Source: a virus
Length of the DNA stretch: 64,000 nt
Reading direction: 5' to 3' (one strand)
IMG/VR virus record: IMGVR_UViG_3300021962_000073
Location: 1-64,000 of that record
Shown: piece by piece, positions 16,616-46,267 of the stretch
Layout of the letters: the number at the start of each line of letters is the position of its first letter
How positions within the stretch are numbered: the stretch's first letter is position 1
Notes under the pieces: model-generated
What the model was told of the DNA's origin: nothing
What the model saw: the letters and a program-made list of their open reading frames with translations, nothing else
The model's database searches: none
Made by a program: the position numbers and the translations under genes

Positions 16616-16710
16616 GGTAGGTAGCACTGGTGTGCGGCTGAGTCTTATAAGCTCGGGAGATCGGTCAGATGGGCTGAAACGGAAGAGTTCGAATCTCTTA
16701 CCTACTACCA
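16616..16710 (+). tRNA. atypical tRNA with anticodon TAT (Ile?)
   Basis: CTGAGT-CTTATAA-GCTCGG, tiny D-loop, long variable arm, T-arm, CCA. Confidence 0.75.
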
Positions 16711-16973: not shown

Positions 16974-17105
16974 TATTGAAACACACTTACACTGTGGCGC
17001 TTTGTCCGTCCCTGGTTTAAAACGGGATATCGCATAAACAGTTCAAGCCCCGGTCGCTCCGGTCTGCTGTGTAAAAGAGAGACGGTCGAGTGTGTTTCAA
17101 TATGG
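16971..17105 (+). ncRNA. unknown structured RNA 1 (closed by CCATATTGAA.../...TTCAATATGG)
   Basis: ~18-bp terminal stem CCATATTGAAACACACTT/GAGTGTGTTTCAATATGG, internal helices, no ORF. Confidence 0.6.
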
Positions 17106-17598: not shown

Positions 17599-17600
17599 AA

Positions 17601-17677
17601 GCCCTCTTACTCCAATTGGTAGAGAGGACGGTCTTAGAAGCCGTAAAGTCTCAGTTCGAATCTGAGAGAGGGCACCA
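17601..17677 (+). tRNA. tRNA-Leu(TAG), short variable loop
   Basis: ACGGT-CTTAGAA-GCCGT, CCA. Confidence 0.85.
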
Positions 17678-17800
17678 TATTGAAATATTCTGAGTAGCTA
17701 CAGCGGAACAACTGATTGCTTGCCAATTCTAGACAAAGCAAGGATCAGCCGTGAAGAGGGGCTATCGCGGATTCAAGTGCCACAGAATGTTTCAATATGA
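17675..17800 (+). ncRNA. unknown structured RNA 2 (homolog of tmRNA intervening segment)
   Basis: terminal stem plus core aligning to 35624-35740 with compensatory changes. Confidence 0.75.
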
Positions 17801-17922
17801 CCATATTGAAGCGCATAATCGATAGTATACTCAGAACAGGAGTGACTGCCTGGTGCGTATACTTGTAGAGAGATGTAAAAAGGCCCCGCTGGTCACGGTT
17901 ATCTCAGTGCGTTTCAATATGG
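17801..17922 (+). ncRNA. unknown structured RNA 3
   Basis: CCATATTGAAGCGCAT/GTGCGTTTCAATATGG stem, AGTATAC/GTATACT, CAGG/CCTG, possible GTGAC/GTCAC pseudoknot. Confidence 0.6.
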
Positions 17923-17932
17923 TTCTGCAAAA

Positions 17933-18055
17933 TTGATGATGGCAAATCCGCCCAACCATCAGGGCGACTACTTAACCCTATTGAACGTCTTGCCAACGAG
18001 GAGTGGAGAATAGGGGAGTCCAAGAGGACTCTTAAACGGGTGATGGTAACCATAC
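17933..18055 (+). ncRNA. possible structured RNA 4
   Basis: TGATGG/CCATCA with loop CGCCC pairing GGGCG; CCCTATT/AATAGGG; GAGTCC/GGACTC. Confidence 0.45.
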
Positions 18056-18061
18056 CTTTTC

Positions 18062-18139
18062 GGGCCTCTAGCTCATGTTGGTTAGAGCAGCGAACTCATA
18101 ATTCGTTGGTGCGCGGTTCGACTCCGCGGGGGCCCACCA
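18062..18139 (+). tRNA. tRNA(CAT), probably Ile2
   Basis: GCGAA-CTCATAA-TTCGT, CCA. Confidence 0.85.
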
Positions 18140-35560: not shown

Positions 35561-35908
35561 ATGATCGTATGAAGTAGATCGAAAGGTGTTCTGGACGGCG
35601 GTTCGATTCCGCCCAGGTCCACCAGTAAACTCTTTGAGTGACTACACTGGAACAACTGCAACACTTGCCAAAGTCGACTAAAGCAAGAACCAGCCAGGAA
35701 GTAGGGTCACCGTGATTTCGAGTATCGCAGAGAGTTTACTAATGGGCCTGACCTGGTTTCGACAGGGCAATAAGTAGAGACATGGACGATCCGACACAGA
35801 GAGTCGTAAAAAGTAAATTCAATAAACGCAAATGAAGAAATCTTTGCATTAGCCGCCTAAACACGGCTTAGGGTTTCGGTGGGTTTCCTCGTAACAGAAT
35901 AACCCACC
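35561..35908 (+). ncRNA. ssrA: circularly permuted (two-piece) tmRNA
   Basis: 3' half with T-arm and CAGGTCCACCA (ends 35624) precedes 5' half GGGCCTGACCTGGTTTCGAC (35744); G3:U70; tag 35828-35860 ANEEIFALAA*. Confidence 0.92.
35624..35740 (+). ncRNA. structured RNA forming tmRNA intervening segment (homolog of 17675-17800)
   Basis: AGTAAACTCT/AGAGTTTACT closing stem, shared core, T-arm GTGAT-TTCGAGT-ATCGC. Confidence 0.75.
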
Positions 35909-45007: not shown

Positions 45008-46267
45008 ATGGCACTTTTTACTCTAGGCGATATAAATTTCAATAAGCCTATCGAAAATCGAGATACATTAGACTTTTTAAGTAATAGGTCGAAACTCTCC
45101 GCTCCGAATGTTTACAGATATCCCATAGATATAGGTAATGTTGATAGAGCACATTACATGATGATTAACATTCACAAGCAAGAAAAGAGTGCTTATTCTT
45201 TTGATATGGCCAATGATCCTTATTCTAATGTACAAAGAAATCGTATTGGTTTAGCGGGGCAGACAGGTGCTTTAAATGCTGGCGGAGTAATGCAAAATTT
45301 AGGTTCAACAGTAGGCACTTTAGCTAATGCAGGTACTCAACAAGCAAAAGAACGTTTCGGTCTAGACGAAAAATATGCAAGTTATTTAGCAGATTCTATT
45401 TCTAATGTTAAAGGTGCTATCGAAGGTACTCCTGTTGGAGATAAAATTTTAGAAGTAACGAAGGAAGTAGGAAATGAAGCAGAACAAATGTTAGGTCGAT
45501 TAAATAATGCCAAATTTTTGAGAACGACAGACAAGATAACTGATTGTATTGCTCTTTACATGCCAGAGACTCTCAACTTTGATGAAAGACAGCAATTTAA
45601 TCCTTTAGGTACAGGAGGAGAGACTCTAAATTATCTAGGATCTCTCGCATCAATTTTAAGCGATTCTGTTAATGGCAAAATCAACGCTTCCGAGGTTGCT
45701 AGAAACTTTACACCATTTATAGCACAAACTATATCAAATAGAATAGGAAGATTCGCTTCTAGTCCAAATACGATGGCTGGTGTATTTGCTTCTGCTATCG
45801 GAGGTGTGCAAAATTCTAGACTTGAATTAATATACAATTCTCCAGATTTTAGAAGTTTCCAGTTTCAATTTATGTTTTATCCTAGAAGTGAAAAGGAAGC
45901 CACTGAAGTTCAAAATATTATTAATGTACTGAGATTTCACCAAGCTCCAGAAATTATGACTGGTACCGCAGGATATTTTCTTGTTCCTCCTTCTGAGTTC
46001 GATATTACATTTTTCTATAATGGCTATGAAAATCCTAATATTCCTACAATTTCAACTTGTGTATTGACAAGCCTTCAGACAGATTATGCTCCATCAGGAT
46101 TTCATTCATTCGAAGTTCCAGGAGAAAATTATCCGTCAATTGGTAGAACGGGTATGCCTTTTGCTATTAGATTAACATTAGGTTTCCAAGAAACTGAAAT
46201 TATGACAAAATTCAATCATCAATTGAGAGCAGGATTTGCCTCTCCAGAAATAAAATTTACCAGATAA
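45008..46267 (+). CDS. 48: baseplate tail tube cap gp48
   Basis: YRYP.D, IALYMP, FRSFQF.F.F.PRS..EA..V..II. Confidence 0.8.
   Translation: MALFTLGDINFNKPIENRDTLDFLSNRSKLSAPNVYRYPIDIGNVDRAHYMMINIHKQEKSAYSFDMANDPYSNVQRNRIGLAGQTGALNAGGVMQNLGSTVGTLANAGTQQAKERFGLDEKYASYLADSISNVKGAIEGTPVGDKILEVTKEVGNEAEQMLGRLNNAKFLRTTDKITDCIALYMPETLNFDERQQFNPLGTGGETLNYLGSLASILSDSVNGKINASEVARNFTPFIAQTISNRIGRFASSPNTMAGVFASAIGGVQNSRLELIYNSPDFRSFQFQFMFYPRSEKEATEVQNIINVLRFHQAPEIMTGTAGYFLVPPSEFDITFFYNGYENPNIPTISTCVLTSLQTDYAPSGFHSFEVPGENYPSIGRTGMPFAIRLTLGFQETEIMTKFNHQLRAGFASPEIKFTR

Follow-up and report, generated by a model that had tools for sequence, protein, structure and literature searches.

Two loci in the window, a 64,000-nucleotide stretch of viral DNA, are paralogous genes of a family of structured RNAs of ~115-125 nt that, as judged by comparing its members, is widespread among uncultured freshwater phages. 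The fold and the family are established by comparative analysis, and the most probable overall reading (about 0.7 by our estimate) is that the product is a processed, stable and homodimeric small RNA, which may serve as a trans-acting scaffold or decoy. One copy (A) lies in a tRNA array and the other (B) occupies the intervening segment of a permuted tmRNA gene; across the family, the tip of the molecule keeps a self-complementary word through which two RNA copies very probably pair.

Two paralogous RNAs in a tRNA array and a tmRNA gene

The window belongs to a viral contig of 78 kb in IMG/VR (an estimated ~48% of a genome) whose baseplate proteins match T4-type families. Its closest cultured relatives are Methylophilales phage Melnitz and Pelagibacter phage HTVC008M (Kyanoviridae), although the amino-acid identity of the gp6-like wedge protein to theirs is only 39-42%, and the sequencing runs that contain DNA of the contig are lake, freshwater, estuary, marine and drinking-water metagenomes. 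ARAGORN and Rfam place 24 tRNA genes between 16336 and 20899, all on the + strand. The acceptor piece of the two-piece tmRNA ends with CCA at 35622-35624, and its coding piece begins at G35744 and carries the tag ANEEIFALAA. The features of the two loci are as follows (R1 and R2 are the covariance models described below).

17601-17677, + strand: tRNA-Leu(UAG) (ARAGORN; Rfam tRNA, 58.2 bits)
17676-17799, + strand: copy A (sequence; fold z = -3.7; R1 119.7 bits, R2 110.6 bits)
17676-17692 with 17783-17799: copy A, P1, 17 bp
17694-17699 with 17760-17765: copy A, P2
17703-17706 with 17749-17752: copy A, P3
17712-17714 with 17746-17748: copy A, P4a
17719-17723 with 17738-17742: copy A, P4b
17724-17737, + strand: copy A, apical loop of 14 nt, with self-complementary TCTAGA at 17728-17733 and A-rich unpaired flanks
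17753-17759: copy A, purine-rich strand joining P3 to P2
17768-17782, + strand: copy A, short hairpin P5, with the T-loop-like 7-nt loop TTCAAGT at 17772-17778, abutting the 3' strand of P1
35532-35951, + strand: permuted (two-piece) tmRNA gene (ARAGORN; Rfam RF04321, 126.3 bits; RF01850, 132.8 bits)
35624-35740, + strand: copy B (sequence; fold; R1 128.9 bits, R2 116.9 bits)
35624-35636 with 35728-35740: copy B, P1, 13 bp
35669-35682: copy B, apical loop, with self-complementary AGTCGACT at 35672-35679
35717-35723: copy B, T-loop-like loop TTCGAGT

When aligned with MAFFT (17670-17810 against 35618-35750), the two copies show 79% mean column identity and adopt one common fold architecture. 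An initial annotation of this DNA had already paired them, and its alignment is borne out, with the sequence blocks that it named being invariant. Helices that it had described as changed but still paired are indeed so: P2 reads GTAGCT/GGCTAT in copy A and GTGACT/GGTCAC in copy B, and P3 reads GCGG/CCGT and CTGG/CCAG, respectively. The closing stems (17 and 13 bp) are, as it had stated, unrelated in sequence. The T-loop-like hairpin that it placed near the 3' end is found in both copies, with 7-nt loops that differ in one base (TTCAAGT in A, TTCGAGT in B), and different self-complementary words, TCTAGA and AGTCGACT, sit at the same loop offset. The proposed starts at CCA ends are likewise as described: the closing stem of copy A begins within the CCA of tRNA-Leu (17675-17677), which it partly pairs, and in copy B the start coincides with the CCA of the tmRNA acceptor piece (35622-35624), while three bases separate its end from G35744 of the coding piece. 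P1 of copy B prolongs the tmRNA acceptor stem, at the cut sites that split the two-piece tmRNA. In the whole 78-kb contig, the family model matches nothing besides copies A and B.

The fold is a three-way junction made up of a long closing helix (P1), a rod (P2-P3-P4) and a short T-loop-like hairpin (P5). Both ends of the RNA lie in P1, which has 10 modelled pairs and reaches 13-19 bp with its extension in most copies. One unpaired A separates P1 from the rod, where P2 (6 bp), P3 (4 bp), P4a (3 bp), an internal loop and P4b (5 bp) lead up to an apical loop of 13-16 nt. The rod is interrupted by conserved purine-rich internal loops; at the P2/P3 boundary an ACA bulge faces a GAAG(AG)NNG strand, and an AACAA bulge is located between P3 and P4a. 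P5 follows two bases past P2 as a hairpin of 3-4 bp with the loop UUCRAGY, and runs straight into the 3' strand of P1, which it abuts as a T-arm abuts the acceptor stem. In nearly all members this loop is UUCAAGY or UUCGAGU, in agreement with the T-loop sequence motif (U-U-C-R-A-N-Y).

Two further observations concern this region. The pair that closes the T-loop (columns 126/134 of the family alignment; window positions 17771/17779) is A·G in 44 sequences and G·A in 19, with a few Watson-Crick pairs, and the GAAG... joining strand, which is 6 or 8 nt long, varies in length with the last base of the T-loop (U or C). The swap and the correlation could possibly reflect a tertiary contact, or merely the existence of two sublineages.

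A covarying family at tRNA ends and in tmRNA segments

Homologues were first sought with an exact-pattern scan of viral contigs and then with a covariance model built from three copies (R1), which yielded ten further loci. A second model (R2), used together with patterns in which the 5' block was optional, gave 48 matches among viral contigs and 102 among metagenome contigs. These 150 further matches in other contigs, all scoring 69-123 bits, together with strong covariation, confirm that the likeness between copies A and B is beyond chance. In a genome collection there were 10 pattern matches, two of which were accepted by the model (L121 and L124); both are tRNA-dense metagenome-bin contigs and probably represent phage DNA. 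The union of all matches comprises 97 distinct sequences, present at one or two copies per contig. The carriers include 240-285-kb fragments of giant phages, and the baseplate proteins of five large carriers gave weak, short matches to that of the window in three cases and none in two, indicating that the RNA family spans distant phage lineages. Given its frequent occurrence in metagenomes from lakes, estuaries and drinking water and its reach across large phages that are only distantly related, the family probably meets some need general to infection.

To gauge the support for the fold we used alignments of 40 and 76 distinct rows, which were fitted to the model and are somewhat favourable to it, with large margins nonetheless: standard pairs fill 94.3% (40 rows) and 93.7% (76 rows) of the cells, as opposed to 30-43% when the partners are slid by 1-3 columns. 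Changes on both sides were found at 24 of 32 pairs in the smaller alignment and 26 of 32 in the larger one. All 10 pairs of P1 show double changes, the P5 stem covaries at four pairs out of four, and the covariation score was not reached by any of 500 shuffles. The covariation read by the initial annotation from two copies alone therefore holds across the family, with pairs kept at ~94%. Furthermore, invariant and frequent G·U pairs indicate that the RNA strand is the strand of the tRNAs.

No Rfam 15 family matches these RNAs, in line with the earlier failure to recognise them: the scan of the window at gathering thresholds returned tRNAs and the tmRNA only, the scan of 17600-18070 and 35615-35750 at E<=10 returned nothing relevant, and that of 13 homologous loci returned tRNA and tmRNA only. 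The earlier suggestion of a functional RNA is accordingly upheld by homologues and covariation, which point to a selected, structured family outside Rfam. The family may be present, without a name, among the 8,495 unnamed candidate RNAs reported from IMG/VR (PMC10690425). A blastn search of 50,697 cultured-phage records with copy A plus its flank and with the tmRNA retrieved only matches to tRNA-Leu and tmRNA arms, the element itself having no match there even at E<=10, and R2 found no match in phages Melnitz, HTVC008M and T4; the same method does recover the element in viral records. Clustering of 802 ORFs from the 48 segments with viral-contig matches, carried out in search of a protein partner, gave no family present in more than 9.

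All 945 tRNAs located within 3 kb of a copy are on the strand of that copy. As many as 70 of the 97 copies lie no more than 20 nt from a tRNA end (26 of them on both sides) and 7 are in tmRNA intervening segments according to ARAGORN, with L012 added by an Rfam permuted-tmRNA match; copies that abut a tRNA or occupy a tmRNA segment thus amount to 77 of 97. The neighbouring tRNAs have 14 different identities upstream and 12 downstream. The slot between the CCA and the coding piece of tmRNA is filled not only by copy B but also in L012, L022/L027, L055 and L111, and in L116 the element is found just upstream of the tmRNA gene. P1 commonly begins at the upstream CCA, and its outer part reads CCAUAUAA.../...UUAUAUGG in many copies, so that the preceding CCA can pair with the downstream UGG before the next tRNA.

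With 77 of the 97 copies at tRNA ends or in tmRNA segments, release by tRNA-processing enzymes appears likely. This placement fits both tRNA and tmRNA processing, as the initial annotation had supposed, and strongly suggests that the RNA is freed from the tRNA or tmRNA precursor by processing enzymes. There is a precedent for cargo in such a place, namely an intact tRNA-Ala gene inside one tmRNA intervening sequence (PMC11915505). Contigs assembled from RNA libraries mostly matched the tRNAs of relatives, and neither copy was covered by them. A weakly supported contig in a run that is probably DNA joins 35625 to 35739, and may represent the tmRNA of a relative with another insert or none.

The arrays hold other oddities. 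A long tRNA (92-95 nt) with a long extra arm and the anticodon UAU (called Ile) is found at 16616-16710, and recurs at the same place in related arrays (L008:7471-7565 and L014:8515-8606). ARAGORN additionally made odd tRNA-like calls at L002:323-423 and L020:1151-1239, one with a four-base anticodon (tacc) and the other with a two-base one.

A self-complementary apical loop and a proposed homodimer

The kissing-loop homodimer put forward for the two copies in the window finds strong comparative support in the apical loops of the family, where palindromes are conserved among homologues. In 93 of the 97 distinct sequences the loop holds at least 6 nt that are self-complementary by Watson-Crick pairing, as a hexamer at a fixed position flanked by unpaired A's, and at least 14 different words occur: TCTAGA, GTCGAC, CTGCAG (often extended, TTCTGCAGAA), CCGCGG, ACCGGT, CTCGAG, GCCGGC, TCCGGA, AACGTT, CCCGGG, TCATGA, ACCTATAGGT and others. 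Palindromic loops were observed in 39 of 40 cases, where shuffled loops predict 7.3 of 40. For each loop length the word is found at a single offset (8 of 9 loops of 13 nt, 17 of 19 of 14 nt, 4 of 5 of 15 nt and 9 of 9 of 16 nt), with only 0-4 loops scoring at any other. In an unbiased mutual-information scan, the outer and central palindrome columns rank 5th and 12th, among the true helices. The exceptions are L005, whose loop is replaced by a longer insert that lacks a palindrome, and two sequences with only GCGC. One lineage has GCCGGU instead of ACCGGU at the same offset, a word that is self-complementary only by means of G·U; in L194, whose loop contains no other palindrome, pairing would be kept only at the level of RNA.

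Since the hexamer cannot pair inside its own loop, it is expected to pair with the corresponding loop of another molecule. The pattern is thus a fairly strong signature of a symmetric loop-loop (kissing) homodimer, even though a 6-bp kiss rich in A/U, such as UCUAGA, is weak on paper. The same palindrome argument has been applied to the OLE and GOLLD RNAs and was confirmed by cryo-EM (PMC12286853). All three contigs with two copies (the window, with TCTAGA and AGTCGACT, as well as L163 and L136) carry two different words. This fits pairing of each version with itself only, and random draws usually give the same.

Taken together, we propose that the RNA is made within a polycistronic tRNA/tmRNA precursor and would be excised from it by host tRNA-processing enzymes. 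Its 3' end would be generated when RNase P frees the 5' end of the tRNA or tmRNA piece that follows, and its 5' end by maturation of the preceding CCA end, a route to release that follows from established tRNA processing and the position of the gene. Once excised, P1 would bury and protect both ends of the RNA, and two molecules would join tip to tip through six-base-pair kissing loops to give a dimer with two-fold symmetry. Paralogues that reside in one phage carry different hexamers, and each would therefore pair only with itself. As to function, our guess is that the dimer is a stable, trans-acting, protein-binding scaffold or decoy employed in the takeover of the host translation and tRNA apparatus.

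Several alternatives deserve consideration. The RNA might be a tRNA mimic or decoy in which the stack of P1 and P5 imitates the acceptor/T-arm elbow and titrates a host tRNA-directed enzyme, for instance a defence anticodon nuclease, RNase P or Z, or the CCA-adding enzyme, a rather unlikely explanation in our assessment. It is consistent with the 7-nt UUCRAGY loop of P5 abutting the 3' strand of P1 in a T-arm/acceptor-like manner, with presumed co-expression with tRNAs, with the ACCA that follows copy A and with the fact that the best (non-significant) alignments of the family model in T4 are to the T-arm and acceptor stem of tRNAs. However, ARAGORN calls no tRNA at either copy and Rfam RF00005 gives none at E<=10; P1 comprises 13-19 bp instead of 7, there is neither a D-arm nor an anticodon-like loop, most copies are devoid of a 3' CCA, and no link to a defence system was found. 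As tRNA models fail on the element, the case for a tRNA mimic comes down to the arrangement of P1 and P5 and the T-loop sequence.

A 'self-addressed' trans homodimer is a narrower form of the homodimer reading, and an unlikely one as formulated: its two rods, with a tRNA-elbow-like T-loop module at each end, would bridge or titrate some host factor that acts on tRNA; anticodon nucleases of defence systems and enzymes of tRNA processing or repair are examples. If it were true, the paralogue-specific hexamers would prevent cross-pairing between co-resident versions, and the tRNA arrays and tmRNA intervening segments of aquatic phages would serve to express a repertoire of small RNAs, each enclosed by the shared closing-helix handle.

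Distinctly unlikely for this family is a function purely in cis, where the element would be a processing or insulator cassette whose helix would only separate tRNAs, mask the CCA and leader or serve as an RNase III/E target, and what is cut out would be waste. This explanation gains from the modules of a different kind that sit alongside:

17800-17922, + strand: different hairpin-closed RNA module, with handle ACCATATTGAAGCGCA / TGCGTTTCAATATGGT, a 17-bp closing helix, MFE z = -5.1 and no ORF
16974-17103, + strand: third hairpin-closed module, between tRNA-Glu and tRNA-Met, with handle TATTGAAACACAC / GTGTGTTTCAATAT

The former lies directly 3' of copy A and has a closing-helix handle like that of copy A, yet falls outside the family; its homologue (L046:3249-3374, 82.5% identity, 3 compensatory pairs) is located just upstream of a tRNA-Ser. 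The latter has homologues in L147, L201 and L237 (81% identity, 3 compensatory pairs), and comparable hairpin-closed units precede the element in other phages. A common closing-helix handle around unrelated cores suggests that small RNAs are exchanged between phage tRNA arrays in the manner of cassettes, and these neighbours keep the spacer explanation alive, as do the frequent pairing of the upstream CCA with the downstream UGG by P1 and the normal fate of tmRNA intervening segments, which is to be discarded (PMC11915505). But a cis spacer needs no conserved core, and here the junction bases, the T-loop and the position of the palindrome are kept across distant phages; the self-complementarity of the loop would, moreover, be irrelevant to it. 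The conservation of core, T-loop and palindrome is what makes the spacer explanation unlikely.

Some additional features of these arrays were noted. The module at 16974-17103 contains the heptamer TTCAAGC, the same as the T-loop of the family. The non-coding stretch 17923-18061, before a tRNA-Met, is 92.7% identical to L008:7864-8000 and has a weak fold signal (z = -2.2); in L008 this stretch directly follows a family member, with no second module in between. Strings of hairpin-closed units with unrelated cores are found at L046:2201-2428, L051:5982-6084, L074:7735-7899 and L097:2547-2787, where the units start with approximately ACCAUA(U/A)... and end with ...GUGUGUUUCNAUAUGG(U).

It is very improbable that the RNA is a small self-cleaving ribozyme, or an aptamer for some ligand, that is active in dimeric form. 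Some ribozymes do act as dimers, and the invariant, unpaired, purine-rich junction strands (ACA, AACAA, GAAG..G) and compact junction would suit one, but there is no match to an Rfam ribozyme or riboswitch at E<=10 and no downstream gene or expression platform, and RNase P together with 3' maturation would already account for the ends of the RNA. Hardly credible, finally, is a feature at the level of DNA, be it a miniature inverted-repeat mobile element or a palindromic site of the protein-binding or restriction type: the terminal inverted repeats formed by P1, the many different positions in tRNA arrays and tmRNA genes and the restriction-site-like character of every loop word would agree with it, but the double changes in P1 would not arise from selection on DNA ends, only one or two copies are present per contig, the G·U pairs are strand-specific, GCCGGU is palindromic only as RNA, and a protein site would keep its sequence rather than vary among 14 words. 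An apparent direct repeat, ACCATATTGAA at 17674 and 17800, turned out to be the start of the helix of the next module; MITEs are recognised by conserved terminal repeats, target duplications and many copies, whereas here P1 covaries and each contig has one or two copies.

The homodimeric, trans-acting RNA that we favour would be of interest on several counts. Functional RNA-RNA homo-oligomers are, to our knowledge, few in nature, and the best recent ones (GOLLD, ROOL and OLE) are large and needed cryo-EM to show their oligomerisation. The present RNA is small and easily synthesised, and the comparative record of its putative dimer contact is richer than those of GOLLD, ROOL and OLE; the family could amount to a natural set of mutually exclusive dimerisation tags. 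It also indicates that a conserved RNA gene can reside in the intervening segment of a two-piece tmRNA, which is regarded as 'discarded', and is a further sign that the products of phage tRNA arrays are not limited to tRNAs.

Comparison with known phage and viral RNAs

The rnaC and rnaD RNAs of T4 are released from a tRNA precursor, and we know of no palindromic loop words reported for them. These species 1/2 small stable RNAs (NC_000866 70908-71171; ~120-140 nt, no known function) resemble the family described here in that their genes sit within a phage tRNA cluster, have the orientation of the tRNAs and directly adjoin one of them (tRNA-Arg), but share no homology with it in sequence or structure, and are not found in a tmRNA gene. 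A search of T4 positions 68000-76000 with R1, filters off, gave tRNAs as its best matches (E 0.4-0.9) and none on rnaC/rnaD. A similarity to rnaC that can be seen by eye (GAGTAGC...GGAAC plus a T-arm) is not aligned by the model, and we take it as chance.

GOLLD and ROOL are also encoded by phages and prophages, often beside tRNA islands, and their function is similarly obscure. They self-assemble without protein through kissing loops, and switching between loop palindromes has been taken as evidence of intermolecular contact (PMC12286853); by the same reasoning, the way in which one palindrome replaces another at a constant offset, with 14 or more words in all, would point to such a contact in the present family. 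The architecture differs, GOLLD and ROOL being RNAs of 500-800+ nt that form 8- to 14-mer cages and the family members RNAs of ~120 nt with one symmetric contact, from which a dimer is expected. The Rfam models of GOLLD and ROOL match neither copy A, copy B nor the 13 homologous loci.

Palindromic kissing-loop dimers are formed by the HIV-1 dimerisation initiation site and the oskar mRNA loop, and variants of the HIV-1 type with different words would not cross-pair. The likeness to the HIV-1 site lies in a 6-nt self-complementary word in a hairpin loop with unpaired purine flanks. Both systems are nonetheless parts of long genomes or mRNAs, with roles in co-packaging or transport, whereas the present family appears to be a free-standing small RNA of DNA phages.

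The intervening sequences of permuted tmRNAs (RF04321; PMC11915505) are regarded as discarded spacers. Unlike typical ones, the slot of copy B holds a conserved RNA that also occurs alone in tRNA arrays. The permuted tmRNA of Melnitz has an intervening segment of >100 nt (L133:1560-1705; MZ577097, ~46072-46217) that is unrelated to the family and is closed by a helix of its own (AAACACUU.../...AAGUGUUU). Just downstream of its coding piece lies the glutamine riboswitch that has been reported for this gene (RF01739, 52.8 bits), which has only the heptamer GGAAGUAG in common with copy B; Rfam finds neither RF01739 nor RF01704 in copies A and B at E<=10.

Overall, the family is of a kind already known from the small RNAs of phage tRNA clusters (T4) and the self-assembling phage RNAs (GOLLD, ROOL). 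It is much smaller than GOLLD and ROOL, and is new with respect to them and to rnaC/rnaD in its unrelated sequence and fold, its single symmetric contact and its presence in tmRNA segments as well.
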